Virus record (IMG/VR): IMGVR_UViG_3300045988_144682
Reading direction: 5' to 3' (one strand)
Length of the DNA stretch: 64,000 nt
Origin: a virus
Both the position numbers and the translations under genes were made by a program. Below the pieces are notes generated by a model, which was not told the DNA's origin, did no database searches, and saw only the letters and a list, made by a program, of their open reading frames with translations. Below, piece after piece: positions 1-22,944 of this stretch. Every line of letters starts with the position of its first letter. Position 1 is the first letter of the stretch.

Positions 1-15
1 AAATTAGAATTTTAT
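1..15. repeat. Left arm (window-truncated) of inverted repeat flanking the radical SAM 5' segment
   Basis: AAATTAGAATTTTAT is the exact reverse complement of 190-204. True length unknown because the window starts here. Confidence 0.6.
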
Positions 16-163
16 CATAATTGTGCAAATTGTTGTAATTTTGTTCAAGAACAACGTCATTTCCTAACATTTTGTGGTATGAAGATAGCTTCATACATGC
101 TAAGTTGGGGAATCTATGGTTCTTTCGCCCTATTAAATCGGCATCAACTATCGCAATTTTCAT
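1..163 (-). CDS. Detached, inverted 5' fragment of the radical SAM gene (start + first 54 codons; runs off window edge)
   Basis: ATG at 163 (GGAGG at 180-184 rc, long 16-nt spacing). Translates MKIAIVDADLIGRKNHRFPNLACMKLSSYHKMLGNDVVLEQNYNNLHNYDKILI. The last codons (DKILI) lie in the repeat whose partner is 190-204. Confidence 0.6.
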   Translation of the reverse strand, partial: MKIAIVDADLIGRKNHRFPNLACMKLSSYHKMLGNDVVLEQNYNNLHNYDKILI

Positions 164-189
164 TGTTTTTAGGTAAAATCCTCCACTTC

Positions 190-204
190 ATAAAATTCTA
201 ATTT
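190..204. repeat. Right arm of inverted repeat flanking the radical SAM 5' segment
   Basis: ATAAAATTCTAATTT; encodes (H)KILI in the frame of the downstream ORF. Confidence 0.6.
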
Positions 205-227
205 CTAAGGTTTTTACTGATACAGTA

Positions 228-1142
228 GTGCCAGAAGAAGTTTTGAATATGAAAAATGTGGAATACGGTGGAACAGGATTCTATTATGATAAAGCTCCAA
301 AGCTGCCTGATGACATTGAGCATATTTTCCCTGATTATCATTTATATGATGATTTTGTGAAAGAGCAGATTAAGAAAGGTGTAAAGCCGAAGGATTTAAA
401 GGAATACACCGATGTAAGCGTAGGTTTTACTACAAGAGGTTGTATACGACAATGTAAGTTTTGTGTGAATCAGAATTATAAGAAAGCAAGTGTTCATAGC
501 AGGATTGAAGAATTTTATGATCCGACACGAAAGTATATTTGTTTGCTTGATGACAATATATTCGCTTGCAAAGACTGGAAGCAAGTATTTGATGAACTGA
601 TTGCTACAGGTCACAAATTTTATTTCAAGCAAGGTATGGACGAAAGACTGTTGACAGATGAGAAGTGTGAGTATCTTTTCAATAAGGCAAATTGGTATGG
701 AGATTACACATTCGCATTTGACAATATTAAGGATAGAGAAATCATAGAAAAGAAACTGCAAATGATAAGGGAGCATACGGATAAGCAGTGTAGGTTTTAT
801 GTATTTTGTGGATTTAATCATAATGATCCAGGTATTTATTCAGATGAATTTTGGAAAAATGATATTGCAGATTTGTTTGAGAGAATAAGCATTTTGATGA
901 AATATAAGTGTTTACCATATATTATGCGATACATGGATTACGAGAAATCACCATTCAGAGGAATGTACATAGACATAGCCAGATGGTGTAATCAACCAAG
1001 TTTCTTTAAAAAGAAGACATTCAGAGAATTTTGCATAACGAATGGTAAAGAGTCATCATGTATGAAATACGCAAAATATTTTGAACAGCAATGCCCCGAT
1101 ATTGCAGAGAAATATTATGATTTAAGGTTTACAAATAAATGA
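228..1142 (+). CDS. Radical SAM domain protein, 3' body (no convincing own start; frame open from 177)
   Basis: CX3CX2C cluster motif in GFTTRGCIRQCKFCV. The in-frame upstream stretch KILISKVFTDTVVPEE has no ATG or RBS. The ORF-track start at 228 is GTG. Confidence 0.8.
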   Translation: MPEEVLNMKNVEYGGTGFYYDKAPKLPDDIEHIFPDYHLYDDFVKEQIKKGVKPKDLKEYTDVSVGFTTRGCIRQCKFCVNQNYKKASVHSRIEEFYDPTRKYICLLDDNIFACKDWKQVFDELIATGHKFYFKQGMDERLLTDEKCEYLFNKANWYGDYTFAFDNIKDREIIEKKLQMIREHTDKQCRFYVFCGFNHNDPGIYSDEFWKNDIADLFERISILMKYKCLPYIMRYMDYEKSPFRGMYIDIARWCNQPSFFKKKTFREFCITNGKESSCMKYAKYFEQQCPDIAEKYYDLRFTNK

Positions 1143-1198
1143 AAAATAAATTGTTTTTGTTTTTTAATAAACAAGCGGTAATAATGGAGGAAACGCAA

Positions 1199-1378
1199 AT
1201 GGTTCAAATGACAGGTGATAGAGTCAAGCGTGTGGCTCTTGAAACTATTGAATCCGAAATACCAGATGTTGACTATGGCTGCGACTACGAAAAAGATGTT
1301 GCTTTGGCTTTTATGCATAGAGTTGGAGGTATTGTTACTTTAGCCAATAGGTTAGCGGAAGAATGTGCTGATGGATAA
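1199..1378 (+). CDS. Hypothetical small protein
   Basis: GGAGG 8 nt upstream of ATG 1199; ORF track 1139..1378 in the same frame. Confidence 0.5.
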   Translation: MVQMTGDRVKRVALETIESEIPDVDYGCDYEKDVALAFMHRVGGIVTLANRLAEECADG

Positions 1379-1380
1379 AT

Positions 1381-1869
1381 ATGAAGACAGATAAAAGAAA
1401 GGAAATTACAAAAATTCTGTCTCTATCAATTCAAAAGCACATAAATCCACGCAATGACTCTAGGATATATTGGTCAAGAGAAGTCACGTTTGACTACAGA
1501 ACCAAGAATGCCAAAAGAGTTGATTATATGAGATTTAAGCCAGTAAATAACACGGTTGGAGGAATCGAAAAGGGAGATTTTTACTGTTATGAGGTCAAGT
1601 CTTCCGTAGCAGATTTCCATTCTAAAAATGGACATAACTTCATCGGAGATTGGAATTACTACGTGATGCCAAAAGAAGTATTCGATGAGGTCAAAAAAGA
1701 GATTCCGTATGGTGTTGGTGTATTAGTTCCCAGTGGTCGTTGCCACTCCGGGAGCTGGTACGACTTGAAATCCATAAAGAAAGCTAAAAGAATGAACAGA
1801 GAAAAGCCTATTTCAGAAATGCTGCTGATGATGTTTAGGTCGGCAGCAAGGGATAGGAATGTAGAGTAG
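1381..1869 (+). CDS. PD-(D/E)xK nuclease-like protein (MmcB-like)
   Basis: VDYM...YEVKSSVADF...YYVMPKEVF resembles the D...E-x-K core of MmcB-type nucleases. Confidence 0.55.
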   Translation: MKTDKRKEITKILSLSIQKHINPRNDSRIYWSREVTFDYRTKNAKRVDYMRFKPVNNTVGGIEKGDFYCYEVKSSVADFHSKNGHNFIGDWNYYVMPKEVFDEVKKEIPYGVGVLVPSGRCHSGSWYDLKSIKKAKRMNREKPISEMLLMMFRSAARDRNVE

Positions 1870-1878
1870 GAGAAGAAA

Positions 1879-2763
1879 ATGAAGAAAAAGATGATGGTGG
1901 GAATTTTTGCCATACTTTTATGTTTTTCTTTGGTTGGTTGTAAGGCAGGAGAAAGTAAATCTAAATATCCATATGTTACAGTAAAAAGAACAATGTGGAG
2001 AAATGATAATACAGATATAGATATTGGTGGTGAATATGAGCTTAATGATTTTAATAAAGAAACCACTGAAAATGGCTGTACCGTAACACTCAATTTTGAT
2101 TTAAAGAGTAAGAAAAAGAATAAATCTACATCTGAGACAACCAAAAAAGAAAATGATACTGTGCAAAAATCCAATTCACAATTCAAATTGGATGTTGAGC
2201 CAGTTCTACAATTACCAGAACTTCCTACAGGTTGCGAAATTACTTCACTTGCGACTGTACTCAATTACTATGGATATGATATTAGTAAAACTCAGTTAGC
2301 AGATGAATACCTGGAATGTGGCGAAGTTGGAGATACAGATCCGAATGAGAAATTTATAGGATCACCATATGATATTCATTCGTGTGGTTGTTTCTCTAAT
2401 GTGATTGCAGATGCAGCGAAGAGTTTCAGTGAGAAGAACGGCTGTAATTTCAAAGTATACAATTTATACGGATTGTCATTAGATGATTTATACAAATATG
2501 TAGAAGATGGCAAGCCGGTAGTAATTTGGTCAACTATTGACCTGAAAGAAACATACAGAAATATCACATGGAACGTTGATGGTAAAGAAATAGCATGGCG
2601 TGCAAATGAACATTGTATGGTGCTAATTGGATATGACAAGGACAATAATACTTGTATTGTTTCTGATCCGTTACAAGGTATTAAGGAATATCCGAGAGAT
2701 TTATTTAATCAGAGATATGAGGAACTTGGTAAACAAGCTGTAGTAGTAGAAAAAGGTATTTAA
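1879..2763 (+). CDS. Lipoprotein with C39-like cysteine peptidase domain
   Basis: Lipobox signal MKKKMMVGIFAILLCFSLVGC; LPTGCEITSLATVLNYYGY plus downstream EHCMVLIGYD is consistent with a Cys/His papain-like C39-type fold. Confidence 0.65.
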   Translation: MKKKMMVGIFAILLCFSLVGCKAGESKSKYPYVTVKRTMWRNDNTDIDIGGEYELNDFNKETTENGCTVTLNFDLKSKKKNKSTSETTKKENDTVQKSNSQFKLDVEPVLQLPELPTGCEITSLATVLNYYGYDISKTQLADEYLECGEVGDTDPNEKFIGSPYDIHSCGCFSNVIADAAKSFSEKNGCNFKVYNLYGLSLDDLYKYVEDGKPVVIWSTIDLKETYRNITWNVDGKEIAWRANEHCMVLIGYDKDNNTCIVSDPLQGIKEYPRDLFNQRYEELGKQAVVVEKGI

Positions 2764-2764
2764 T

Positions 2765-2920
2765 ATGTGGGATTTTGAAAAAGATTCAGACAAAACATGT
2801 TTCGACCATCTGGGTGATTATATCCCAGAAAGTATTGCAAACGAAGCGAAAAGAGAACTCAGAAGACGAGGATATTCTGAAGAGAAAATCCGTGAAGAAG
2901 AGTGGAAACGGACAAAATAA
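2765..2920 (+). CDS. Hypothetical 51-aa protein
   Basis: ATG overlaps the upstream stop (TAATATG); open for 51 codons, followed by a small hairpin at 2921-2938. Confidence 0.4.
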   Translation: MWDFEKDSDKTCFDHLGDYIPESIANEAKRELRRRGYSEEKIREEEWKRTK

Positions 2921-3053
2921 CTATTTTATTTGAAATAGCTTATTTAGCCGTTTTCAGACAAAATTATGAGTAAATAATAGAAGTCTTAGTTTCTGGAATT
3001 ACCTATATTACGGTGTTCCAGTATCATAGATAAAATAGTTATTAGGAGTAGTA

Positions 3054-3806
3054 ATGGAAGTCAACGAAATATATAAAGGTGACTGCCTGGAATTGATGAA
3101 AGATATTCCAACGAATAGTGTTGATATGATTTTATGTGATCTTCCGTTTGGGCAGACTGCCCGGAATAAATGGGATTCTGTTATACCGTTTGAACCATTA
3201 TGGCAGCAGTATAACAGAATTATTAAAGATAACGGTGCAATCGTACTATTCGCAAACGGAATGTTCACGGCTGACTTAATGCAAAGTAATAGAAAAATGT
3301 GGCGGTACAATCTTGTGTGGGAGAAAACACAACCGACAGGATTTTTGAATGCTAAGAAAATGCCACTTAGGGCGCATGAGGATATTTGCGTATTTTATAA
3401 GAAATTACCTACATACAATCCTCAGAAAACGACTGGACATATAAGAAAAGTAAGCAAAGCGGAACATAAGCAGAATTGTAAAGAGACTACGGATTATGAG
3501 AAATATGGACTGACTACATATGACAGTACAGAAAGATATCCTAGATCCGTGATTAAGTTCTCAAAAGACATTCAGAAATCAGCCATTCATCCGACACAAA
3601 AACCCGTTGGATTATTGGAGTATCTTATCAAGACTTATACAAATGAAGGTGAACTGGTACTTGATAATTGTGTTGGAAGTGGTAGTACATGTGTAGCTGC
3701 ACTTAATACAAACAGGCAGTATATTGGAATTGAAATGGACGATAAATATTTTGACATTGCTCAGAATAGGATTCGTGATTTCAAAGAATGCTTAAAACAA
3801 GCATAA
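3054..3806 (+). CDS. DNA N4/N6 methyltransferase (beta-class order)
   Basis: Catalytic DLPFG (DPPY-like) lies N-terminal to HPTQKP and the SAM motif DNCVGSGST. RBS AGGAG upstream. Confidence 0.85.
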   Translation: MEVNEIYKGDCLELMKDIPTNSVDMILCDLPFGQTARNKWDSVIPFEPLWQQYNRIIKDNGAIVLFANGMFTADLMQSNRKMWRYNLVWEKTQPTGFLNAKKMPLRAHEDICVFYKKLPTYNPQKTTGHIRKVSKAEHKQNCKETTDYEKYGLTTYDSTERYPRSVIKFSKDIQKSAIHPTQKPVGLLEYLIKTYTNEGELVLDNCVGSGSTCVAALNTNRQYIGIEMDDKYFDIAQNRIRDFKECLKQA

Positions 3807-3822
3807 ATAAAGGAGAAACAAT

Positions 3823-4134
3823 ATGTATGATGATATTGTGAAGTATATTCCATATGGTAGAGAGAACGCCATTAGTAGAGATGATTTGGCAATCAAGGTT
3901 GGATGTTCTGACAGAATTATGCGAGATTTAATAAGTAAGGCAAGAAAGAAAACTGTCATCATCAATATTCAGAATGGTAGTGGATATTACAGACCAACAG
4001 AAGATGATATGGAAGATGTATTGAAATACAAGCATCAGGAAGAAAATCGTGCTACAGAGGTGTTTGGCAATCTGCAGCCGGTAAGAGAATTCATCAGGAA
4101 ATATGGTAAGGGTAAGAAAAATGCGAAAGTGTGA
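3823..4134 (+). CDS. Hypothetical protein
   Basis: AAGGAG RBS; 103-aa ORF in the operon. Confidence 0.6.
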   Translation: MYDDIVKYIPYGRENAISRDDLAIKVGCSDRIMRDLISKARKKTVIINIQNGSGYYRPTEDDMEDVLKYKHQEENRATEVFGNLQPVREFIRKYGKGKKNAKV

Positions 4135-4378
4135 TAGCTGTCTTTATGGTGAAAAACTCTACGATGGTACATTGATTTGCCAACACATCGTATCTATGCA
4201 AGGAAAAGAAACCACACAAGACTATGTGATTTGTAATAGGGTTGCTAAGTGTGATTTCTTTTTAGAAACAAATGTTAAATGTAGTGACTGCCAGGGTAGT
4301 TGCTATGCAATTCAAAGAAGACTTAATTGTAAGAAAATGGAGGTTTTGAAGAATGAAAAGAGTATTGATTGTCATTGA
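4103..4378 (+). CDS. Cys-rich hypothetical protein
   Basis: Several CxxC-like pairs; start uncertain (4103 or 4121). Confidence 0.45.
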   Translation: MVRVRKMRKCDSCLYGEKLYDGTLICQHIVSMQGKETTQDYVICNRVAKCDFFLETNVKCSDCQGSCYAIQRRLNCKKMEVLKNEKSIDCH

Positions 4379-4898
4379 TATGCAGGAGGACTTTGTGCGT
4401 GGTTCTCTGGGATCAAAAGATGCAGAAGCCATTGTAAGTAAAGTTAAAGCTAAAATTACCGAATACATGGAGCGTGGCGATAAGATCATCTTCACTAGAG
4501 ATACACACAGAGAAAATTATTTGGAAACACTGGAAGGTAAGAATCTGCCAGTTGAACATTGTATCTATGGCACAGAGGGATGGCGAATTATTCCAGAGCT
4601 AGTTGATGACTGCAAAGAATATCCAGACTGCTCATTTATTGACAAAGTAACATTTGGGTATGAGAACTGGAAAGATATTTTCGGCACTGTAGATGAATAC
4701 GGTATTGAGTTGGTGGGACTTTGCACTGATATTTGTGTAGTGTCAAATGCACTTGCATTACGAATGTTCTACCCGTCCTGGAACATTTCAGTTGATGAAA
4801 GTTGTTGTGCTGGTGTAACTACTAAGAAGCATAAAGCAGCACTTGAAGTCATGAAATCATGCCAGATTGAGGTTACAAACAGCCAGAAAACTAAATAA
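4353..4898 (+). CDS. pncA: Isochorismatase-family hydrolase, nicotinamidase-like
   Basis: VLIVIDMQEDF (Asp), TRDTHRENY (metal D/H), IDKVTF (Lys) and GLCTDICV (Cys) match the PncA-type triad and metal site. Confidence 0.7.
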   Translation: MKRVLIVIDMQEDFVRGSLGSKDAEAIVSKVKAKITEYMERGDKIIFTRDTHRENYLETLEGKNLPVEHCIYGTEGWRIIPELVDDCKEYPDCSFIDKVTFGYENWKDIFGTVDEYGIELVGLCTDICVVSNALALRMFYPSWNISVDESCCAGVTTKKHKAALEVMKSCQIEVTNSQKTK

Positions 4899-4900
4899 AA

Positions 4901-4909
4901 CTATGTTTT
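4901..4909. repeat. Left arm of short inverted repeat (C5-MTase switch)
   Basis: CTATGTTTT is the reverse complement of AAAACATAG at 5068-5076. Confidence 0.5.
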
Positions 4910-5009
4910 TATGTTGTCGGTCAAGTTCTATCGTGAAAGTCTCAAAACCCTTGATTTCAAAGGCTTTTGCGATACTACGTGTACCGCTAAATAAATCTAA
5001 ACACTTCAT
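4902..5009 (-). CDS. Detached, inverted 5' fragment of the C5 cytosine methyltransferase gene (RBS + first 36 codons)
   Basis: GAAAGGAAG RBS about 10 nt before ATG 5009. Encodes MKCLDLFSGTRSIAKAFEIKGFETFTIELDRQHKNI, i.e. SAM-binding motif I (FxGxG-like LFSGTRS). Confidence 0.7.
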
Positions 5010-5033
5010 TATAGTTTTACTTCCTTTCTCAAA

Positions 5034-5603
5034 TTGCGTATATTACGTGATTACAAACGACCAAATCAAAACATAGATTGGTATGCAGATATCATGGAAG
5101 TAACGGCAAAAGACATTATTGAGAGATTCGGTAGACCGGATGTAATCTGGGCAAGTCCACCATGTACAAGTTATTCTATCGCTGCAATATCACATCACAG
5201 AAAGAAGAATGTTGAAACCGGCAGTCTTGATCCTGTAAGTGATTTTGCAAAGCTATCTGATGAGCTTGTAAAACATACATTAGAGCTTATCAAAGAATTA
5301 AAGCCTAAGTATTGGTTCATCGAAAATCCTAGAGGTGGCATGAGAAAAATGGATTTCATGCAAGGATTGCCACGATACACAGTTACATACTGCCAGTATG
5401 GTGATACACGAATGAAACCTACGGACATATGGACTAACCACCCGAATCCTCAATTTAAGCCAATGTGCCATAATGGTGATCCATGTCATGAGAAAGCACC
5501 TAGAGGGAGTAAAACAGGCACACAAGGTTTAAAGGGTGCTGTACAGAGAAGTGTTATACCAGAGGAATTATGCTTGCATATTGCAGATATATGTAGACTG
5601 TAG
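5034..5603 (+). CDS. C5 cytosine DNA methyltransferase, 3' body lacking motif I
   Basis: WASPPCTSYS (motif IV PC), IENPRGG (motif VI ENV-like), YCQYGDTRMKPT. No FxGxG motif and no RBS; the ORF-track start is TTG. Confidence 0.75.
   Translation: MRILRDYKRPNQNIDWYADIMEVTAKDIIERFGRPDVIWASPPCTSYSIAAISHHRKKNVETGSLDPVSDFAKLSDELVKHTLELIKELKPKYWFIENPRGGMRKMDFMQGLPRYTVTYCQYGDTRMKPTDIWTNHPNPQFKPMCHNGDPCHEKAPRGSKTGTQGLKGAVQRSVIPEELCLHIADICRL
5068..5076. repeat. Right arm of short inverted repeat (C5-MTase switch)
   Basis: AAAACATAG; codons N-I-D of the plus-strand ORF. Confidence 0.5.
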
Positions 5604-5606
5604 ATT

Positions 5607-6116
5607 GTGATTGTAAATGGAAACGAGGTAATTGAGATGGACATGTTAGATATTTGTATTAAACAAGGCTATGTACCGCCAGATTGTAAATTAGATGGTG
5701 CAATAGCTTTTATGATTGTCAGAGATGGAAAAAATCCGTGTGATGGATGCCATGCTGACTGCATACATAAAAAATCGTCATATTGTAGAGAAGTTTTTTA
5801 TGATGATAAATCAAAAAGAGTACAGCGTAGAAAGAAATTGGGAACAAATTCAGAACCAACTATTTATGTAGACACGGCACGTAGTGGTACAACAATTACG
5901 GCTATTTTACCAAATTCTGAGATAGGATATATAAGGCATGTAACAGATGGGATTGAATGTACAGCAGATTATATTGAGAATATGTGCATAAAATATGGCG
6001 CAAAACAAGTTATTATTGATACAAGTGGATTTGGAATAGCTGTATGTGATTCGTTGTTTAACAAAAAATTGCCCTGGTTAGATATAGTTCCTGTTCATTG
6101 TATTTCAGATAGATAA
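5607..6116 (+). CDS. Hypothetical protein
   Basis: 169-aa ORF; start ambiguous (5607 GTG or 5637 ATG). Confidence 0.55.
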   Translation: MIVNGNEVIEMDMLDICIKQGYVPPDCKLDGAIAFMIVRDGKNPCDGCHADCIHKKSSYCREVFYDDKSKRVQRRKKLGTNSEPTIYVDTARSGTTITAILPNSEIGYIRHVTDGIECTADYIENMCIKYGAKQVIIDTSGFGIAVCDSLFNKKLPWLDIVPVHCISDR

Positions 6117-6137
6117 ATGTTTACAAAGGAGATTAAA

Positions 6138-6548
6138 ATGAAAGTATTTTTAGGTGGTACATGTGCCGGTTGGAAATGGCGAGATGAGTTGCAGCCATTG
6201 CTTAAATGCGACTATTACAATCCAATTGTGAAGAATTGGAACGAAGAAGACAGACTGAGAGAAGTCCATGAGAGAGAAACTTCTGATTATGTTTTATATG
6301 GTATTACTAACGGAATTAAAGGCGTATATTCAATTGCAGAAGTTGTTGATGATTCAAACAAACGACCAGAGAAAACAATATTCCTTAATTTATATAAAAC
6401 ATATGAGAGAAGTGGAGAATCTAAGCAGATGGCGCATAGCTTAAAAGCCGTTGAAAATATGTTGAAAGCGAATGGAGTTATAGTATTCAGTGGCGAAAAA
6501 GCACTTCTGGAAGTTGCAGATTATTTGAATAAAGCAGTTTCAATATAA
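6138..6548 (+). CDS. Nucleoside 2-deoxyribosyltransferase-like protein
   Basis: AAGGAG RBS; N-terminal KVFLGGTCAGWKWRDE and the later SIAEVV Glu resemble this Rossmann-like family. Weak assignment. Confidence 0.45.
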   Translation: MKVFLGGTCAGWKWRDELQPLLKCDYYNPIVKNWNEEDRLREVHERETSDYVLYGITNGIKGVYSIAEVVDDSNKRPEKTIFLNLYKTYERSGESKQMAHSLKAVENMLKANGVIVFSGEKALLEVADYLNKAVSI

Positions 6549-6563
6549 GGAGAATGATTACAA

Positions 6564-7322
6564 ATGGGAGAATTTGTAAAACCAAAGAGAGTCATCGTTT
6601 CCGATAAAGAATATATTCAAAAACTTGTTAATGCTAATTTGGTAAAAGACTTACATGACAATGAGGAAATCTGCCCTTATTGTCATGGCACTGGTATGGT
6701 GATAAGAGATAACCAGTATGGATTGTCTGATGATCCAGACAGAAAAGTATGGTTTCCATATAAACATCAAGCGATTACTTTTTGTCAACATTGTTTTAAT
6801 GGTGTGATTCTCAGATGTAAATTGTGTGGAGAAGTAATTCAGCGTGGATATACAAAGCATGATTGTAAACAGCAAAGAGCTATAGACGAGAAATTACGAG
6901 AACAGAAAAAGCGAGAAGAATTTGAGAAAGCACCACTTTTACCAAAGAAAAAACAGAAAGATTATGAATATTTCTTTTCAGAAGAATACACACATGATAA
7001 TGGTTATTTTAATGACTGGGAAGAGTTTTTCGATGACTGGGAAAATGAACACGAAGAGTATGGAGATGTTCGCCCGAAATATGTGTGGGTAACTGAGCCA
7101 GTAGAAATGAGTATAAATGCAGAGAGTATTGCAGAACAGGCAACCGAAGATTTATACGAAGATGCATATGATGATATCTCTGATGGAGAAATAAAAAGAT
7201 TACAGGAAATTCTTGACCACTGGGCGAAAACATGTGGTGTAAGCACAACATACTATGAGAGTCATAAATACAAAGTAAGAATACCGTGGGAAGACTACAA
7301 TAAGAGAAAGGGAAAAGAATAA
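6564..7322 (+). CDS. Zinc-finger protein with acidic C-terminal half
   Basis: CPYCHGTG (DnaJ-type CxxCxGxG), CQHC, CKLCG; D/E-rich tail. Confidence 0.6.
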   Translation: MGEFVKPKRVIVSDKEYIQKLVNANLVKDLHDNEEICPYCHGTGMVIRDNQYGLSDDPDRKVWFPYKHQAITFCQHCFNGVILRCKLCGEVIQRGYTKHDCKQQRAIDEKLREQKKREEFEKAPLLPKKKQKDYEYFFSEEYTHDNGYFNDWEEFFDDWENEHEEYGDVRPKYVWVTEPVEMSINAESIAEQATEDLYEDAYDDISDGEIKRLQEILDHWAKTCGVSTTYYESHKYKVRIPWEDYNKRKGKE

Positions 7323-7324
7323 AA

Positions 7325-7528
7325 ATGGGATTTTGTCAGAGATGTGGTGGATATTGCGCCGATAACTATACATATTGTAAGCCGTGTTACATTGCACTTG
7401 GCACACCATATGGCACATCAATTTCAAAGGGGCATCAATGCAGAAAGTGTGGAAGAATAATTTATGGTAGATACAATTATTGCCTAGATTGCGCACGAAA
7501 GAAAGGATTTTTTAAGGAGGACTATTAA
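7325..7528 (+). CDS. Small zinc-ribbon protein
   Basis: CQRCGG...CKPC...CRKCG...CLDC in 67 aa. Confidence 0.55.
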   Translation: MGFCQRCGGYCADNYTYCKPCYIALGTPYGTSISKGHQCRKCGRIIYGRYNYCLDCARKKGFFKEDY

Positions 7529-7536
7529 GCTAGATT

Positions 7537-8103
7537 ATGAGTAATTTTTACATTGCAGATTTGCATTTAGGACATGAAAATGCAATGAGAAGGTTTGACC
7601 ACAGACCTTTTGAATCATTAGAAGAACAGGACAGAGCGATTATCGCAAATATCAATAACAGAGTATCGCCACAGGATAATCTTTATTTGTTGGGTGATGT
7701 GTCATGGTATAAGCCAGATAAGACTGCAGAACTGATTAAACAGATTAAATGTAAGAACCGATATCTGATTGTTGGAAACCATGATAGTTGGATTAAAGAT
7801 GGAAAATGTAAGAAATTGTTTCAGGGAATCTATGATTTAAAAAGAATCAATGATGAAGGAAGAATTGTTGTACTTTGCCACTATCCATTAGCAGTGTGGG
7901 ATCAGTCACATAGAGGCAGCTATCATTTATACGGTCATGTACATAATAATTTGAGTGAAGACGGAAAAACGCCGACACACAATATCTTGCATAATGAAGA
8001 GATGAAGAATGCATATAATGTAGGATGTATGTTGCCATATATGATGTATACACCAAGAACACTTGATTATATTCTGAAGAAAACCGGGAGGACTTCTAAG
8101 TGA
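7537..8103 (+). CDS. Calcineurin-like metallophosphoesterase
   Basis: Motifs ADLHLGH, LGDV, GNHD, HYP, GHVH. Confidence 0.85.
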   Translation: MSNFYIADLHLGHENAMRRFDHRPFESLEEQDRAIIANINNRVSPQDNLYLLGDVSWYKPDKTAELIKQIKCKNRYLIVGNHDSWIKDGKCKKLFQGIYDLKRINDEGRIVVLCHYPLAVWDQSHRGSYHLYGHVHNNLSEDGKTPTHNILHNEEMKNAYNVGCMLPYMMYTPRTLDYILKKTGRTSK

Positions 8104-8324
8104 ATCTAGTTGAGCATTATATACGAAGAATTATCAGTGCAACGGATATCTCTGACCGATATGAAGAAGAAATGAAAAAGTATAATCCGAACTATGAGTT
8201 AAAAGAACCGATGTATGAAGTAAAACTTGAATATGATTGTTATGGTCATATAGGCGAGTGTACTGAATGGTGGAAGAAATCATACTATATTGAAGTATTG
8301 GAAAAAGGGTATTTTTTAGCATAA
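8100..8324 (+). CDS. Hypothetical protein
   Basis: 74-aa ORF overlapping the upstream stop by 4 nt. Confidence 0.5.
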   Translation: MNLVEHYIRRIISATDISDRYEEEMKKYNPNYELKEPMYEVKLEYDCYGHIGECTEWWKKSYYIEVLEKGYFLA

Positions 8325-8341
8325 ACAAACCAAAATAAATG

Positions 8342-8369
8342 TTGACATTATATAAAAATATGATATACT
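8342..8369 (+). promoter_or_regulatory. Sigma-A-type promoter (TTGACA, 16-nt spacer, TGaTATACT)
   Basis: Perfect -35 at 8342-8347 and extended -10 TGaTATACT at 8361-8369, in the gap before the RNA ligase gene. Confidence 0.65.
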
Positions 8370-8385
8370 AAGAAAGGAGTTAGCA

Positions 8386-9690
8386 ATGTTTGAATGGAAT
8401 CCAGTTTTTAATTTTGCAATGAACATCAAACATAATTATTTGAAAAAGTTCGGCAAAGTTGAATACAGAAAATATGAGATTGAAGAGAATGATACTACCA
8501 AAACGGTATCATGCTTAGAATACTGGATTAAAACACTTAACGATGAAACAGCCAAAGAAAAAATCAAATATCTTGAAATAAATCAGGAGGGGGATCTTAT
8601 CCTTATCCGATATGGTAAATTCAGTTCAGCCGGTGATGGTCAATACGAAATTACTGTTGAAGACCTCTGGAATGCAGATAATGGATTTTTCTTGGAATGC
8701 CGAAGTGTGGTAATCAATCTCAAAACAGAGGAAATTGTCATTGCACCATTTAAGAAGTTCCGAAATTTGAATGAATGTCCCGAAAATGATATAAAAGTCG
8801 TGACAGAAGAAATCAAGAATGCAAAAACTGTTGAAATCACAAATAAACTTGATGGAAGTATGCAGTGTGTACGTTGGTATAACGGCGAAATCTTCATGTC
8901 TGGCAGTCAGGCGATTAACCCTGATATGTCGTGGAGATTAGCCGATGGAATTTTACGACTAACAGACAATAATAAATGCATGGCAAAAGAAAATCCAAGT
9001 CTTACATTTATCTACGAATATATTTCATTGCCAGATGCCCACGTTGTCAAATACACGAAAGAGCAAGAAGGATTGTATCTGATTGGTATTAGAGATGTGA
9101 ATACCGGCAGACAGTATTCTTATAAAGAAGTTGCGGAGTATGCTGCTAAATATCATGTGCCGATGACAGAGATTTTTGACAAAACTTTTGATGAAGTATT
9201 GGAAGAAGTCAAGACAATCAAGTCGGATGAAATGGAAGGATTTGTAATTAACATTGATGGTCACATGATTAAAGTGAAAGGCGATGATTATACACAGATT
9301 CATAGAGTATTATCAAAAATTTCTTCAATCAATCTGATTATTCAGAGTGTGGCAGAAGATAAGGTCGATGATTTATACAGCAAAGTTCCGGCAGCATACA
9401 AACCAAGAGTACGGATAGTTGAGAAAATTGTTCGAGGATATATTTCAGACATGGAATCAGAAACTTCTAAATGGTACTCAAAAGCTCCAAAATCTGACAG
9501 AAAGACCTTTATGATTTGGGTACATGAAAATGTCCCACCGAAATTTAAGTCATATGTCAGAAACAAGTATTTTGGTATAGAAAACAATTATATCAAATAT
9601 GGAAGTGATAAATGCCCAGGTTATAGAAAACTTAACGAAATGGGTGTAACAGACTATAAGAAAATTTTTGAAGAGAGTGAGGAAGAGTAA
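8386..9690 (+). CDS. RNA ligase (T4 Rnl1-like nucleotidyltransferase)
   Basis: Motif I NKLDGS (KxDG), motif IV MEGFVIN, motif V IKVKG. Confidence 0.75.
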   Translation: MFEWNPVFNFAMNIKHNYLKKFGKVEYRKYEIEENDTTKTVSCLEYWIKTLNDETAKEKIKYLEINQEGDLILIRYGKFSSAGDGQYEITVEDLWNADNGFFLECRSVVINLKTEEIVIAPFKKFRNLNECPENDIKVVTEEIKNAKTVEITNKLDGSMQCVRWYNGEIFMSGSQAINPDMSWRLADGILRLTDNNKCMAKENPSLTFIYEYISLPDAHVVKYTKEQEGLYLIGIRDVNTGRQYSYKEVAEYAAKYHVPMTEIFDKTFDEVLEEVKTIKSDEMEGFVINIDGHMIKVKGDDYTQIHRVLSKISSINLIIQSVAEDKVDDLYSKVPAAYKPRVRIVEKIVRGYISDMESETSKWYSKAPKSDRKTFMIWVHENVPPKFKSYVRNKYFGIENNYIKYGSDKCPGYRKLNEMGVTDYKKIFEESEEE

Positions 9691-10640
9691 TGGAAAAACC
9701 AACTTTCGTGATGATGGTCGGTTTGCCTGGAAGTGGAAAATCTACTTTGGCGAAAGATATAAAGGACACGTATCATGGTACAATTTTTTCGTCAGATAGT
9801 ATCAGAGAAGAACTTACTGGTTCAGAAGAGTGTATGGATCAGGATAAAGAAGTATTTCAAACGCTTCATAGAAGAATTAAGGAATATCTGATAGAGCATC
9901 AGGGGACAGACGGTTGTGCAATTTATGATGCATGTAATATCAGTTATAAAAAGAGAATGGCATTCTTGCGTGAACTTAAAAAGATTGATTGCAGAAAAGT
10001 TTGCTATTTTGTATGGACTCCATATAAAATGTGTCTTGAACAGAACAAAAAGAGAGACAGAGTTGTACCGGAATATGCGATTGCACGAATGTACAAAAAC
10101 ATTTACATACCACAGTATTATGAAGGTTGGGATTCTATTATTTTTAATTTAAAACACGCAATAATAAATGGAAACAGCTTAACAAAATTGTTCTATGAGA
10201 TGCCAAATGGACTTTGTAGTATTGACCATGACAATCCACATCATCAGTTATCCATCGGAAATCATTGCATCGCATGTTATCTGAACGCTCTCACGATGAC
10301 AATGGATTCGCCGGATTTCAATTTATGTACGGCAGCATTGCTTCATGATATTGGAAAGTCTTTTACAAAAGGGTATAAAGACAGTAAAGGCAATTCTTGT
10401 GAATACGCACATTACTACCAGCATCACCTTGTATCTGCATATGATGCGGTTAGATATCTCAGATTTGTAGAAGAAAATGATAGGCTTGAAATTCTTGCAT
10501 TGATCCAGTGGCATATGTTCCCGTACTTCTGGGAGAAAGATAATAACACAAAGATGCAGAGCAAATACAAGAAATTATGGGGAGATGAGCTGTACGACAA
10601 AATCATGCTTCTCCATAAAGCAGATATGGAGGCACACTGA
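9690..10640 (+). CDS. P-loop polynucleotide-kinase-like domain fused to an HD phosphohydrolase domain
   Basis: Walker A GLPGSGKST; C-terminal LLHDIGK HD motif and downstream His residues. Confidence 0.8.
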   Translation: MEKPTFVMMVGLPGSGKSTLAKDIKDTYHGTIFSSDSIREELTGSEECMDQDKEVFQTLHRRIKEYLIEHQGTDGCAIYDACNISYKKRMAFLRELKKIDCRKVCYFVWTPYKMCLEQNKKRDRVVPEYAIARMYKNIYIPQYYEGWDSIIFNLKHAIINGNSLTKLFYEMPNGLCSIDHDNPHHQLSIGNHCIACYLNALTMTMDSPDFNLCTAALLHDIGKSFTKGYKDSKGNSCEYAHYYQHHLVSAYDAVRYLRFVEENDRLEILALIQWHMFPYFWEKDNNTKMQSKYKKLWGDELYDKIMLLHKADMEAH

Positions 10641-10855
10641 TGAAAAGTAAGAAACAGTTTGCCCGTGAAACAAATGGAGAAGTATACACAAGAAATGAAT
10701 TTGCGAAACTTGTAGACGCAGGAGCGTTTATTCCATATGACGGGATTGGATATTTCCATGATGGTACAAATAGAACAGATATAAGTGTATGGAATAATAG
10801 TCTTACAGCAAAAGATGTTGAAAAATACCCCTATGTATGTTGGTACAACAGATAA
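10640..10855 (+). CDS. Hypothetical protein
   Basis: 71-aa ORF; ATGA overlap with the upstream gene. Confidence 0.55.
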   Translation: MKSKKQFARETNGEVYTRNEFAKLVDAGAFIPYDGIGYFHDGTNRTDISVWNNSLTAKDVEKYPYVCWYNR

Positions 10856-11298
10856 ATAAAATTCATGTTTTGTCTATTATGAAATCCTATCCGTTGGTCG
10901 AAACTGAGTATTTGTATTCCATTTTTGAAATATTTATATCTAGTTTTTCCCTGTAAAGTATTCAGTGGTAGCAAAACTGCAAATGGTTTATTGAGATTAT
11001 ATAATCTTTCGAGAATTTGGTCTTTGATATTGAATGGTGGGTTTGAGATTATCACATCATAGTCATCAGGTTCATATAAGAAGAAATCTTTCCCTTCATC
11101 TATATGGGATCTGATGACATCAAATCCATTTTCCCTAAATGTTTGATAGAACGAAGACCATTCAGCATCAAACGGACACCATATTCTATAACTTTTCGGT
11201 ATATATTTTACGATTGGTTCAACCGCATAATATGGTGTATATAATTCCTGGTGTTCAGGCGTTTTACTACTGGTTAAATAACCAATGTTGTTTGCCAA
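10831..11298 (-). CDS. N6-adenine-type methyltransferase, flipped orientation with aberrant C-terminus
   Basis: IISNPPF catalytic motif; AAGGAG RBS plus TTG start at 11298. It is the only full-length minus-strand gene in the plus-strand arm. It ends 9 codons after crossing the repeat. Confidence 0.8.
   Translation of the reverse strand: MANNIGYLTSSKTPEHQELYTPYYAVEPIVKYIPKSYRIWCPFDAEWSSFYQTFRENGFDVIRSHIDEGKDFFLYEPDDYDVIISNPPFNIKDQILERLYNLNKPFAVLLPLNTLQGKTRYKYFKNGIQILSFDQRIGFHNRQNMNFIYLLYQHT
10860..10871. repeat. Left arm of 12-bp perfect inverted repeat (N6-MTase switch)
   Basis: AATTCATGTTTT; reverse complement of 11318-11329. Confidence 0.7.
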
Positions 11299-11317
11299 TT
11301 TATCACACTCCTTCGTT

Positions 11318-11329
11318 AAAACATGAATT
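11318..11329. repeat. Right arm of 12-bp perfect inverted repeat (N6-MTase switch)
   Basis: AAAACATGAATT. Confidence 0.7.
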
Positions 11330-11439
11330 CTACAATAGAGGGAAGTCCATTTGCAACTGCATATTTTTGTAAAGATTTTCTACCAAACGACTTAATTGTT
11401 GAGAAACTAGAAAAATATGAAAAAGGATTATTGAATTGA
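11330..11439 (+). CDS. Orphan 3' end of the N6-MTase gene (36 codons, no start of its own)
   Basis: The frame entering from the right repeat arm stays open: STIEGSPFATAYFCKDFLPNDLIVEKLEKYEKGLLN*. It stops 13 nt before the next ATG. Confidence 0.55.
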
Positions 11440-11452
11440 TTGGAGAAATTAT

Positions 11453-12094
11453 ATGAAAGTGATTTTTCTTGATGTTGACGGTGTGTTGAACTCAGAAAAA
11501 GATTTGTTAGAAGCAAAAGGAAAAAGTGAGCTGTTTGACAGACCGTTGGCATTATTAAAAGAGTTAGTCGAATCAACCAAAGCAAAAATAGTTGTATCAT
11601 CAACATGGCGAATTGGTTGTTCAAAAAGTGGTCGTAATTCGTGGTATGGAGAGGGAATCTTCAAAACACTTACAGATAGATTGGCAGAATATCAGATGGA
11701 AGTATATGATATTACACCAGTCATAAATAAGCCGGGAGTACAGCGTGGAGATGAGATAAGAGCGTGGCTTGAAAATGCAAAAGAAGAAATTGATGCATTT
11801 GTTATTTTAGATGACGATGCAGATATGTGTGAATTTACAGGAACGAATCTTGTACAGACTTCCATGAAAACTGGGCTACTGGAATATCATGTAGAAATTG
11901 CTAAAAGTATACTGAATGGCGAAAATATCACACATGATGTTGTCCTTGATGCAGTCCGTAAAGTGTGGGACAAATTACCTGAATTACGGTTTGGTCAGCT
12001 TATTGTAAATGTTTTGGGTTCAGATCCATTTTATGAATTAGACAAAAACGTAGTAACAAAAATGAGAAAATACGAAAGGAAAATAGGTGAATGA
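11453..12094 (+). CDS. HAD-superfamily phosphatase-like protein (type seen in RNA-repair loci)
   Basis: N-terminal FLDVDGVLN (DxD nucleophile motif); later ILDDD. Confidence 0.7.
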   Translation: MKVIFLDVDGVLNSEKDLLEAKGKSELFDRPLALLKELVESTKAKIVVSSTWRIGCSKSGRNSWYGEGIFKTLTDRLAEYQMEVYDITPVINKPGVQRGDEIRAWLENAKEEIDAFVILDDDADMCEFTGTNLVQTSMKTGLLEYHVEIAKSILNGENITHDVVLDAVRKVWDKLPELRFGQLIVNVLGSDPFYELDKNVVTKMRKYERKIGE

Positions 12095-22601: not shown

Positions 22602-22806
22602 AATCTAAATCATGAGCCTCTTTAATCGAGGAATTCAACGATTTATGATAGCAACAACAAGTTCCAAACTAAATAAAATTCTGATTTTATTTAGACTACT
22701 AATCGTCTGAAGCAAGCAAATATTGCTTAAAACAGAGGATAACGATTTTTACGAAAAACAGAAAAATCATGTTTGCGAAAGGATATATAGTATTTTTGTT
22801 TTACGT

Positions 22807-22937
22807 TTCTGGGAATATATCTTTTTGGGGAAAATGGCTTAAATCTCACATAATCGGCACTTTCGCCCCAATTTTCCCAAAAACAAAACACGTTTTTGGC
22901 AATTACTTCTGATTTTGGGAAATATTTTTGGGAAGGA
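22807..22937. repeat. Cluster of five TTTTGGGAA(A/T)AT-like motifs (4 direct, 1 inverted) upstream of tnsA-like gene
   Basis: Copies at 22807-22818, 22822-22835, 22871-22883 (inverted), 22911-22925 and 22925-22936. Confidence 0.6.
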
Positions 22938-22944
22938 GATTCAT

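Follow-up and report, generated by a model that had tools for sequence, protein, structure and literature searches.

An array of at least nine inversion switches, likely programmed and site-specific, among the early DNA-modification genes of an SPbeta-like gut prophage

The window examined here (the whole stretch of 64,000 nucleotides analysed, from IMG/VR record IMGVR_UViG_3300045988_144682) belongs to a temperate SPbeta-like prophage that is very common in human-gut Lachnospiraceae. The element encodes SPbeta-type structural proteins (the Pfam families YonB, YonD_N, YomX_N, YomW and YomU_Tube were matched on its structural genes), has a large genome, estimated at ~165-175 kb from contig geometry, and occurs as integrated copies adjoining host lexA in contigs of up to 557 kb. 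Cultured hosts of the prophage exist. The element has no DNA identity to known phages, so that its relationship to the known SPbeta phages is distant. In the first part of the window, genes for three DNA methyltransferases (one C5, one N6/N4 and one NPPF-type) and a radical SAM enzyme are each associated with a short segment bounded by inverted repeats, designated switches A to D (Table 1).

Table 1. Coordinates of the switches, their target genes and related features in the window
Feature	Position	Strand	Remarks
Switch A	1-204		OFF by ORF logic; 15-nt perfect inverted repeats at 1-15 and 190-204
Radical SAM gene body	205-1142	+	CIRQCKFC (CxxxCxxC); no start codon or RBS in window
Switch D	2916-3043		intergenic, 128 bp; 14-nt perfect repeats at 2916-2929 and 3030-3043
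N6/N4 DNA methyltransferase	3054-3806	+	ORF intact; PF01555, 2.7e-31; PHROG 67
Switch B	4895-5079		OFF by ORF logic; repeats at 4898-4919 and 5058-5079
C5 cytosine DNA methyltransferase body	5080-5603	+	motif IV (PPC) onwards; PF00145, PHROG 757
Switch C	10853-11332		OFF by ORF logic; repeats at 10857-10871 and 11318-11332
Switch C methyltransferase, 3' end	11333-11439	+	last 35 codons, stranded on plus strand when OFF
Lone palindromic site of the same family	22665-22690		CTAAATAAAATT-NN-GATTTTATTTAG
yomM-like Xer-type tyrosine recombinase (candidate invertase)	55011-56045	-	PF00589; in tail-gene operon, adjoining tape-measure gene

The two arms of the switch A repeat (AAATTAGAATTTTAT) match at 15 of 15 positions, and the enclosed segment carries on its minus strand a ribosome-binding site (RBS, ~179-184), an ATG (163-161) and ~60 codons for the N-terminus of the radical SAM protein. 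Inverting this segment in silico yields a continuous ORF of 366 aa with the CxxxCxxC motif, whose product matches PHROG 9298 (radical SAM, 2e-52) in one stretch over residues 1-335. The restored protein has more than 5,600 homologues; the full-length ones among the matches listed (~364 aa) cover 99-100%, and OFF copies appear as shortened gene calls of 304-325 aa. The window begins within the left site, which is complete in relatives (ATTAAA-TTAGAA-TTTTAT). Switch B has the exact core CTATGTTTT (4901-4909 and 5068-5076). Its left site, ATAAAA-CTATGT-TTTTAT (4895-4912), lies directly 3' of the TAA stop of an isochorismatase-like gene, and its right arm (AAAACATAG, 5068-5076) lies within coding sequence (codons HKNID). 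The minus strand of the interior contains a promoter-like element (5026-5045), an RBS, an ATG (5009-5007) and ~35 codons, among them those for C5-methyltransferase motif I (DLFSGTRS). In silico inversion gives a continuous ORF of 211 aa that matches PF00145 and PHROG 757 over residues 1 to 207; relatives align to residues 1-210 of the restored protein when ON and to residues 31-211 when OFF, and more distant homologues are intact, without the repeat. Switch C (exact core AATTCATGTTTT) has the left site (TAA)ATAAAA-TTCATG-TTTTGT (10856-10873), directly after the stop of the ORF at 10640-10855, and its right arm is AAAACATGAATT (11318-11329). Its interior of 446 nt carries on the minus strand an RBS, a TTG start (11298) and ~160 codons of the NPPF-motif methyltransferase, and inversion in silico produces a continuous ORF of 182 aa with the NPPF motif and a match to PHROG 799 (1e-36). 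An earlier, sequence-only reading had proposed three genes with an inverted repeat in which the RBS, start codon and N-terminus lie on the flipped segment, and the inversions restore the ORFs of all three. By this logic A, B and C all read as OFF in the window.

The same reading took the remaining methyltransferase (at 3054-3806) to be intact. Its ORF is indeed complete, but it is preceded by a further invertible segment, switch D, the left site of which (ACAAAA-TAACTA-TTTTAT, 2912-2929) overlaps the TAA stop of the ORF at 2765-2920, and the right arm of which adjoins the methyltransferase RBS. Switch D contains a conserved promoter-like element at 2991-3010, and its interior is homologous to that of B and of three switches found upstream in relatives (G, H and I, below); in the ON state of these four, the element is in sense orientation. 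Because the element is antisense in the window, switch D is predicted to be OFF, and homology to the other cassettes indicates that this is probably so. Promoter scans of the sequence performed no better than chance; from its conservation in the cassettes, we infer that the element is a putative promoter.

At least five more switches (E to I) are found just upstream in relatives, so that the three switches originally proposed are all real yet too few. The array of at least nine is packed into ~29 kb, with cassettes of 130-720 bp. Each cassette begins directly after the stop codon of the preceding gene, and at its downstream end an inverted partner with the same spacer and inner arm lies inside or just before the regulated gene. 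The cassettes of A, C and E comprise an RBS, start codon and N-terminal codons; those of B, G, H and I contain in addition the conserved promoter-like element, D contains this element only, and F contains a 3' catalytic domain. The genes regulated by the upstream switches of relatives encode two C5 methyltransferases, a C5-like protein, a PAPS-reductase-like protein and a PARP-like ADP-ribosyltransferase, and at least six orphan methyltransferases lie under switches. In one orientation of A, B, C, E, G, H and I the gene loses its start codon, RBS and N-terminus, which suggests that cassette orientation would set expression, giving either a complete gene or one deprived of its start or promoter. 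A tenth site pair lies just 5' of a second PAPS-reductase-like gene, where no flip was seen among the relatives.

All nine left sites fit the pattern A(T/C)(A/T)AAA-N6-TTTTAT, and all nine switches have exact repeat cores of 9-16 nt. The N6 spacer is asymmetric, identical in the two partner sites and different in each of the nine switches; a third site with the same spacer exists for switch F only. Among the left sites, those of B and H, and that of D in clade 2, are perfect dyads, and in right-hand sites the outer arm is degenerate. A common recombination site had been suspected from the two methyltransferase repeats, and a shared site does exist, although it is defined by this pattern and not by AAAACAT(A)G; the radical SAM repeat, which had been regarded as only loosely similar, conforms to it fully. 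The two arms of a switch vary in concert between clades, at spacer positions 2, 5 and 6. Both arms of A change from AAATTAGAATTTTAT to AAATTAGTATTTTAT in clade 2, both arms of B differ by clade (CTATGTTTT, CAATGTTTT and CAATATTTT), and the core of C in clade 2 is AAATTCATATTT in both arms.

Repeats of this kind carry little weight by themselves. The inverted-repeat scan that had been advised does recover the A, B and C pairs, but among 28 pairs of such short length in 12.5 kb; short inverted repeats are frequent by chance, so that repeats alone prove nothing and the comparative evidence is decisive. A pair detector built on the site architecture is more discriminating: in the window it returns the known switches only, with ~0.07 chance matches expected, and in ~400 kb of further loci, taken from this phage, its relatives and their host flanks, it finds none except switch C where a locus overlaps it. 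The motif is also enriched in the window, with 8 occurrences observed against 2.1 expected, as is an extended form (11 against 2.5); in each case none of 100 shuffles scored as high. A lone palindromic member of the site family lies ~100 nt inside the right end of the prophage, without an inverted partner. Its arms are invariant, and its two central bases are CT, AA, AC or CG among near-identical genomes.

Orientations were compared among relatives in IMG/VR, ENA and MAGs. Switches A, B, C and D each occur in both orientations in independent assemblies from these sources, with junctions exactly at the repeat, as do E, F, G, H and I. Switch A is flipped to ON in L017/L049; B is ON in L001/L034, L002-4/L035-37, L029, L185, L186 and L245; C is ON in L006/L039, L011/L043, L046, L047, L050-52, L055, L058, L188, L189, L194, L196 and L211; and D is flipped in L001/L034 and L012/L044, with both orientations present in clade 2 too. 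For A, B and C, both orientations are found in relatives that share 94-100% identity over the B gene body, and a second time in a clade of ~75% identity. The survey of related genomes that had been suggested therefore finds either orientation and no fixed locus, and the idea of a phage-borne, multi-locus inversion switch acting on methyltransferases is supported by the presence of both states at all three loci. The states are scattered on a tree of 27 genomes, for which Fitch parsimony gives a minimum of 6 flips for D, 5 for B and 9 for C, and switch state varies freely between genomes whose query genes share at least 99% identity. The switches assort independently, so that coordinated switching, one of the two modes suggested, is not supported. 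No inversions were seen in the 12-64 kb part of the window.

It is very unlikely that these inversions are unprogrammed accidents, in which illegitimate recombination or template switching at short repeats leads to loss of dispensable genes followed by drift or fixation. Inverted repeats of 12-15 nt often arise by chance in this AT-rich DNA, and the OFF state predominates for A and B. Against this, at least nine loci share one site architecture and the same placement relative to the upstream stop and the regulated start, the paired arms co-vary between clades, both states recur often on the tree, and no inversions accompany the many chance repeats elsewhere. Moreover, cassettes remain 97-100% identical between genomes, so the flipped genes do not decay. 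Assembly artefact is more improbable still, to the point where we would hardly entertain it. Two contigs end exactly at an outer repeat edge (the window at A and L039 at C), and for the window this indicates that the assembler had trouble there. However, the repeats are shorter than typical assembler k-mers, so that neither orientation assembles unless reads span the junction, and the same alternative junctions, precise to the base, appear in dozens of independent assemblies from various projects and assemblers (SPAdes NODE, MEGAHIT k141, IMG/VR and MAGs). A contig end at the repeat edge is what an assembly-graph branch arising from mixed orientations would give. The scattered states among near-identical genomes, together with these contig breaks, hint at reversible switching within one clonal population.

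Inverted binding arms around an asymmetric spacer of 6-8 bp that is identical in the partner sites are the hallmark of tyrosine-recombinase core sites, and the architecture fits an enzyme of the Xer/dif or Cre/lox type. Sites in which an A-tract and a T-tract flank N6 are also similar to hix and gix, at which serine invertases act. A Hin/Gin-type serine invertase system is disfavoured: B and D have palindromic central dinucleotides (AT and TA, respectively), and no resolvase/invertase domain was found in the scanned window ORFs or ~20 kb upstream. A shufflon was rejected: nine switches have nine spacers, and relatives are colinear between switches.

The recombinase search covered the window ORFs and ~20 kb upstream in relatives, and agrees with the earlier observation that no invertase adjoins the switches. 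The only recombinases in the window are, as had been stated, the tyrosine recombinase at 55011-56045 and a TnsB-like transposase; the latter, which has no connection with the inversions, is part of a Tn7-like module located at the end of the prophage. The tyrosine recombinase, the sole catalytically intact candidate in the region searched, shows weak matches to XerA, XerC and XerD and a match to PDB 4a8e (XerA), and has a complete catalytic set (GARKSE (R..E), a lysine hairpin, HCMRH, GW and NLY). It is named "SPBc2 prophage-derived recombinase-like protein yomM" in one source, and a syntenic gene is present in Bacillus phage Goe14. The gene is kept in every relative long enough to include it, with identities of 100% (clade 1), 78% (clade 2) and 54-57% (further out). 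These 54-57% homologues in more distant phages make the recombinase lineage older than the switches; judging from similar sample IDs alone, such phages may be the ones that carry the repeat-free B gene. By exclusion and from site geometry, the recombinase at 55011-56045 is most likely the enzyme that flips the switches.

A competing explanation accepts the switches as real and assigns them to another enzyme, either a host global invertase of the Xer, RecV or Tsr type or another phage recombinase, for example a serine invertase elsewhere in the phage genome, leaving the yomM-like protein to concatemer resolution, regulation or integration. We regard this as quite possible, at somewhat less than even chances. 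No recombinase adjoins any switch between ~-20 kb and +64 kb, and the ~90 kb of the ~165-175 kb genome that lies beyond the region seen could hold another one. The yomM-like gene belongs to the SPbeta-type tail module as an old and conserved component, with homologues in SPbeta-like phages of Bacillus, for which switches of this type are not known, and MrpR of SPbeta, which has a tyrosine-recombinase fold, is a repressor rather than an enzyme (PMC10516654), so that recombinase folds in this group can be non-enzymatic. Global invertases acting on distant sites, such as RecV and Mpi, are known (PMC5903667 and PMC9881135). On the other side, the sites, which have an extended arm specific to the phage (TAAATAAAA), form a family restricted to this phage lineage and absent from the host flanks examined, and spacers that are the same in both arms and co-vary outside the central dinucleotide argue against a different enzyme, as does the retention of all catalytic residues in the yomM-like protein, unlike MrpR.

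The possession of a different spacer by each switch would allow a single tyrosine recombinase that requires spacer identity to flip each one alone, without recombination between different switches. Independent flips would then generate a combinatorial ON/OFF pattern of modification genes. The most likely benefit would be bet-hedging of the modification pattern on phage and lysogen DNA: modification that is ON may protect from host restriction-modification systems, and modification that is OFF may permit escape from modification-dependent (type IV) defences. As the element is temperate, switching may be of consequence for lysogens and not for virions alone. We consider it likely that the region harbours at least nine inversion switches arranged as an array and operated by programmed, site-specific recombination, with the yomM-like enzyme and bet-hedging as the most likely agent and role.

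Inversion switches are already a known kind of system. In the literature searched, however, we found no description of a phage-borne array acting on orphan modification genes, in line with the sequence-only reading. The closest parallels are the RecV switches of C. difficile (cwpV, flgB and cmrRST) and the Mpi/Tsr invertible promoters of Bacteroides, in which many small cassettes (~130-300 bp) with short inverted repeats are scattered over the replicon and flipped independently by a non-adjacent recombinase for ON/OFF bet-hedging. In contrast to these, the present array is phage-borne and confined to ~29 kb, targets orphan methyltransferases and modification enzymes rather than surface structures, has its own spacer for each switch within a common arm motif, and in most cassettes inverts a start codon and N-terminal codons rather than a promoter alone. 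Partial-intergenic and intragenic invertons (Chanin et al. 2024, 10.1101/2023.03.11.532203; Milman et al. 2023, PMC9881135) and inverton-type epigenetic phase variation of methyltransferase genes (Ni et al. 2025, PMC11741434) share with it a boundary within coding sequence and an altered product, and methyltransferases are known targets in gut bacteria. As described in the relevant passages of these papers, those invertons lie on bacterial chromosomes and mostly shuffle restriction-modification specificity or concern single loci, and the same passages make no mention of a phage-borne ON/OFF switch array; the present phage lineage may be hidden in the data sets.

The G segment of Mu (Gin) and the C segment of P1 (Cin) are likewise inverted site-specifically by a phage-encoded enzyme (a candidate here) and make progeny heterogeneous as a form of bet-hedging. 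They are single segments of ~3 kb, inverted by a serine invertase from an adjacent gene with a required enhancer, and swap alternative tail-fibre genes to change host range, whereas here many small two-state switches with tyrosine-type sites and no adjacent invertase act on modification genes. The R64 shufflon also has many inverted sites with a spacer and one well-conserved arm, and undergoes inversions only. Its enzyme, Rci, is a tyrosine recombinase, where ours is a candidate. Because shufflon sites have a spacer in common, their segments recombine among themselves and provide a single gene with shuffled C-termini; the differing spacers here insulate the switches, which control separate genes. 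ON/OFF switching of DNA methyltransferase genes, predicted here from sequence, also characterises phasevarions (Mod, HsdS), which change methylation genome-wide. In classical phasevarions, bacterial restriction-modification systems are switched by slippage at simple sequence repeats or by shuffling of hsdS domains, in contrast to inversion of a translation-initiation or promoter cassette in front of at least six orphan prophage methyltransferases.

We tentatively propose, as a model that has rather less than an even chance of being correct, that one yomM-type recombinase, expressed with the late tail genes, runs at least nine spacer-insulated switches as a heritable, reversible "modification barcode". 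If so, each virion or lysogen would inherit one of up to ~500 combinations of active modification enzymes, spanning at least six methyltransferases together with radical SAM, PAPS-reductase-like and PARP-like enzymes. Such a barcode would spread the risk of meeting hosts that have restriction-modification systems or, alternatively, modification-dependent defences, and a very prevalent group of Lachnospiraceae in the human gut would become epigenetically heterogeneous as a result. The conserved and unexplained yomM gene of SPbeta would thereby gain a function.

Repeat searches bore out the positions that the sequence-only reading had given for three inverted-repeat pairs in the window, those of switch A (radical SAM enzyme), switch B (C5 methyltransferase) and switch C (NPPF-type methyltransferase). 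The genes around all three lie on the plus strand, and the GC skew is positive until about 28 kb of the window, while a ribosome-binding site (RBS), start codon and N-terminal codons are found on the minus strand inside each segment. Flipping any of these segments in silico joins the N-terminal codons in frame to the plus-strand gene body. Restored A is a 366-aa protein with a CxxxCxxC motif that matches PHROG 9298 (radical SAM) over residues 1-335 and has more than 5,600 homologues; among the matches listed, the full-length ones (~364 aa) cover 99-100%, and searches of Pfam, NCBIfam and PDB sequences add nothing on function to PHROG 9298. Restored B is a 211-aa C5 cytosine methyltransferase (PF00145; PHROG 757 over residues 1-207) with motif I inside the cassette and motif IV inside the body, and restored C, 182 aa long, is a methyltransferase that bears an NPPF motif and matches PHROG 799. 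Since short inverted repeats are frequent in this AT-rich DNA (28 pairs in 12.5 kb), the repeats by themselves are no proof of switching. Among publicly called radical SAM proteins there are big clusters of 5'-truncated products of 304-325 aa (n = 530 in one cluster), which appear to be OFF-state copies.

The switching phenomenon is strongly supported by comparative data. Relatives gathered with the restored B protein as query against IMG/VR, GTDB genomes and metagenome contigs comprise dozens of loci that fall into two clades, in which the B gene body is 94-100% (clade 1) or ~75% (clade 2) identical to that of the window. The sequence-only reading had suggested a survey of related phages for either orientation, and both are present at A, B and C; each segment is found either way round in both clades, with breakpoints exactly at the repeats. 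The state counts in the table are those of the loci in one orientation comparison, with L245 added from the analysis of upstream loci. A 2.2-kb marker was used to build a neighbour-joining tree of 27 genomes, on which parsimony demands a minimum of 5 flips for B, 9 for C and 6 for the further switch D described below; the flips are recurrent events rather than old fixed inversions. The states of D and of the upstream switches E, F, G, H and I vary freely between genomes at least 99% identical in the query gene. The same type of comparison revealed no inversions at 12-64 kb of the window or near the recombinase. B methyltransferase homologues that are further removed (≤74% amino-acid identity) have an intact gene, in which the best repeat, at 6-8 nt, is no longer than chance would give; the switch is therefore a derived trait of this phage lineage. 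Close relatives in GenBank were not encountered, a megablast search of window 1-12000 against INPHARED phages giving no match, and tblastn with the recombinase found distant matches only, of which the best (MT835481, 42%) has tail genes alone in common and lacks the switches. B and C were never observed ON together: loci with B ON had C ON in 0 and OFF in 5 cases, and those with B OFF had C ON in 13 and OFF in 7, an exclusion that may mean nothing (one-sided Fisher p ~0.015, calculated by hand and uncorrected for shared ancestry).

It could be supposed that the inverted segments are assembly artefacts; this is excluded, as repeats of 9-16 nt fall below the usual assembler k-mers, the identical two junctions recur across assemblies from different projects and programs, and the junctions are precise to a single base. 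A de Bruijn graph branches at the outer edges of a repeat when the reads hold both orientations. Position 1 of the window coincides exactly with the outer edge of the A repeat, and the end of an unrelated contig, L039 (IMGVR_UViG_2149837021_000104), coincides exactly with that of the C repeat. These contig ends are hints of a mixture of orientations inside a sample, although no two contigs of a single sample were recovered in opposite orientations.

The N6/N4 methyltransferase gene, which had been read as intact, is in fact preceded by an invertible segment (D) that is flipped in relatives, being inverted in L001/L034 and L012/L044 and variable in clade 2 too. At least five more switches (E, F, G, H and I) are found in relatives within the 20 kb upstream of the window start. 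A PAPS-reductase-like gene has its RBS, its ATG and 79 codons in the E cassette; L245 has this gene ON (392 aa), and the other loci have it OFF (313 aa). G controls a 247-aa C5-methyltransferase-like ORF, H a 308-aa C5 methyltransferase, and I a second C5 methyltransferase whose ATG GAT AAA AAA start lies within the cassette. In a WGR-PARP gene, F flips the 3' half, which encodes the PARP catalytic part. A third site of F shares its spacer and forms an extra pair (F2) ahead of a second PAPS-reductase gene; F2 was not observed to flip in the relatives compared, and this pair is known from the pair detector described below.

Invertible switches, with the genes they regulate, and other features of the phage (window positions unless a locus is named; ON, regulated gene complete; OFF, start or promoter lost)
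Feature	Position	Repeat	Left site	Regulated gene or content	Loci ON/OFF
Switch A	1-15 and 190-204	15/15 matching	ATTAAA-TTAGAA-TTTTAT	Radical SAM enzyme	1/8
Switch D	2916-3043	14-nt perfect repeats	ACAAAA-TAACTA-TTTTAT	N6/N4 methyltransferase (3054-3806); lies between stop of ORF 2765-2920 and RBS of this gene	
Conserved block in D	2991-3010			Antisense	
Switch B	4898-4919 and 5058-5079	exact core CTATGTTTT	ATAAAA-CTATGT-TTTTAT	C5 methyltransferase	8/~30
Switch C	10857-10871 and 11318-11332	exact core AATTCATGTTTT	ATAAAA-TTCATG-TTTTGT	NPPF-type methyltransferase	14/12
Switch E	L040:295-578, ~4.4-4.6 kb upstream of window position 1	16-nt repeat	ATTAAA-AACTGG-TTTTAT	PAPS-reductase-like enzyme	
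Switch F	L250:59-765		ACAAAG-AACATA-TTTCAA	PARP-like ADP-ribosyltransferase	
Site pair F2	L250:754-953				
Switch G	L250:5274-5422		ATAAAA-AATCTT-TTTCAT	C5-methyltransferase-like ORF	
Switch H	L250:6140-6288		ATAAAA-GTAAAT-TTTTAT	C5 methyltransferase	
Switch I	L250:7197-7366		ACAAAA-TTGTTT-TTTTAT	C5 methyltransferase	
Lone motif sites	7319, 22673, 28291, 43836, 49962				
Partnerless sites of motif family	22665-22690 and 28288-28308				
RNA-repair cluster	8386-12094			T4-type RNA ligase; polynucleotide kinase with HD phosphatase domain; 'Swiss army knife' HAD domain protein	
Coincident contig ends	~21605				
Suspected resolvase ORF	21924-22601				
Prophage end	~22787				
Tn7-like module	22915-27700			Possible TnsA-like ORF (22915-23283); TnsB-like DDE transposase (23273-25099); TniB/TnsC; TniQ	
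Reverse transcriptase	32334-33656 (-)			PHROG 1423	
Template repeat	33771-33891			122 nt	
Variable repeat	34662-34783			3' end of gene 34653-35585	
yomM-like recombinase	55011-56045 (-)			Xer-type tyrosine recombinase	

The common feature of the sites is not the shared core AAAACAT(A)G that had been proposed for the two methyltransferase repeats; every left site reads A(T/C)(A/T)AAA-N6-TTTTAT, where N6 is a 6-bp spacer, with the individual sequences as tabulated. All left sites are directly 3' of, or overlap, the TAA stop of the preceding gene, and the partner sites keep N6 and the inner TTT(T/G)AT arm and have a degenerate outer arm. The window holds more copies of the motif than expected (8 against 2.06, with 0 of 100 shuffles reaching 8), and likewise of the extended form TAAATAAAA-N6-TTTTAT (11 against 2.46; 0 of 100 shuffles reach 11). 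A detector for pairs, comprising a left site and an inverted partner bearing an identical N6 80-900 bp apart, returned exactly D, B and C in the window, where the null expectation is 0.07 per 64 kb; A escapes because the window start truncates its outer arm. Applied to relatives, the detector recovered all switches already known from comparison, and it found nothing else in ~400 kb of other loci from this phage, related phages and host flanks, and no matches in distant relatives. The lone motif sites yielded no partner. One of two partnerless sites of the same motif family, that at 22665-22690, is a perfect 12-2-12 palindrome whose central two bases vary (CT, AA, AC, CG) among genomes otherwise more than 99% identical, and a 77-bp indel is located ~50 nt upstream of it.

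The leader is almost absent from cassettes A, C and E, which must depend on read-through transcription. A conserved block, CTGnAAnnnCG-TAATAT-AGGTAATTTCAGAA, is common to cassettes B, G, H, I and D, 18 nt past the inner arm (TTGATT, TTCATT or TTTATC); arm and block together look like a -35/-10 pair. The block is on the sense strand in the ON state of B, G, H and I, as set by ORF logic, whereas in D of the window it is antisense, and D is for this reason predicted to be OFF, as would then be all four switches of the window. Scans around D for sigma-70 promoters, in both orientations, and for terminators were at chance level, with no terminator found, and the direction of D was therefore taken from cassette homology.

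All nine N6 spacers are asymmetric, no two are the same, and both arms of a switch share one spacer. Between clades, both arms have changed together: TTAGAA to TTAGTA in A, CTATGT to CAATGT to CAATAT in B, TTCATG to TTCATA in C and TAACTA to TGATAG in D. Tyrosine recombinases (Xer/dif, Cre/lox) are typified by identity over a 6-bp overlap region between inverted arms, and the site design points to an enzyme of this type. We propose that, because spacer identity is required, many switches could be run by one enzyme without cross-recombination, and that relatives are colinear between switches because differing spacers insulate them. In contrast, a Hin/Gin-type serine invertase requires just a matching, non-palindromic central dinucleotide, and here the central dinucleotides would be AT (B) and TA (D), both of which are palindromic; none of the ORFs scanned between about -20 kb and +64 kb yielded a serine recombinase. 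The DDE transposase was rejected as the invertase, as it belongs to the Tn7-like module at the prophage end and is missing in clade 2, which still switches. A further ORF near the transposon, suspected of encoding a resolvase, has no Pfam match. Of the two recombinases that the sequence-only reading had listed, the tyrosine recombinase thus remains as the candidate.

This Xer-like protein has a full catalytic set (R..E, K, HxxR, W, Y), is conserved at 100% in clade 1 and 78% in clade 2, and is encoded in the tail operon, adjoining the tape-measure gene. It is named 'SPBc2 prophage-derived recombinase-like protein yomM' in one source, and Bacillus phage Goe14 has a syntenic XerC-like gene. SPbeta MrpR is a recombinase-fold repressor that lacks four of seven catalytic residues (PMC10516654). 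The yomM lineage predates the switches, and no function is assigned to yomM in the literature searched, in a search that was incomplete and where absence is no proof. Whether this protein flips the switches is, on our reading of the sequences, close to evenly balanced and if anything tilts slightly towards no, the recombinase scan having covered about -20 kb to +64 kb of the larger genome.

The structural genes belong to SPbeta-type Pfam families (YonB, YonD_N, YomX_N, YomW, YomU_Tube), and the genome size estimated from contig geometry is ~165-175 kb. Integrated copies adjoin host lexA in contigs of up to 557 kb. The recombinase protein is recorded as 'MULTISPECIES [Lachnospiraceae]' and places the prophage in the cultured isolates Ruminococcus sp. 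OM08-13AT and Coprococcus sp. AM11-30B; its exact sequence is indexed in 6,420 blocks of a metagenome collection. From the integrated copies, the Lachnospiraceae records and these indexed blocks, we conclude that this is a very prevalent temperate phage of gut Lachnospiraceae. The integrated copies terminate at ...TGCGAAAGGATA beside lexA, and a Tn7-like module is situated at this prophage end (L259, L261, L263), its place being taken in clade 2 by a different 3-kb module; it is possible that the phage integrates by Tn7-like targeted transposition rather than by an integrase. Four related IMG/VR contigs (3300045988_147397, _138132, _139784 and 3300023290_000024), all of one dataset, end within one base of each other 120 nt past the dUTPase gene, and a fifth, L101, ends 24 nt later; other contigs run straight through. 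Such ends could reflect packaging or opening of the genome at this point, as in SPbeta, or else a convention of processing or a break in the assembly. The tail region contains a diversity-generating retroelement, in which a template repeat adjoins the reverse transcriptase gene and is matched by the variable repeat. In the early region, switch C is surrounded by an RNA-repair cluster, which suggests defence against host anticodon nucleases, and the same region encodes isochorismatase-like, C39-like peptidase and nucleoside deoxyribosyltransferase-like proteins, ThyA, DHFR, NrdD/NrdG and dUTPase.

Nearly all of the regulated genes encode nucleic-acid modifiers or likely ones. Inversion switches, global invertases, and intragenic and partial-intergenic invertons are already known, as are inverton-type variation of methyltransferase genes in bacteria and the G and C segments of phages; no account of a phage genome carrying an array of ON/OFF inversion switches for orphan modification genes was found in the literature searched, an incomplete search in which absence is no proof. 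DNA modification shields from restriction-modification systems and exposes to modification-dependent nucleases. Phage methyltransferases are a main counter-defence against restriction, and little is understood of how phages answer modification-dependent nucleases. With each switch flipping stochastically and independently, progeny and lysogens would be spread across many modification patterns, and the most economical reading is one of hedging between restriction and modification-dependent nucleases. Speculatively, late expression of the recombinase with the tail genes would fix the states just ahead of packaging.

Switches of this kind systematically distort automated annotation, many such genes being called truncated, and pipelines should allow for that. 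The spacer-coded sites are a natural case of many orthogonal switches apparently served by one recombinase, with possible use in engineering. For the phage itself, which is widespread, an array of independent flip switches over every modification gene would constitute an inbuilt answer to modification-dependent nucleases, an idea that is directly testable in cultured hosts.
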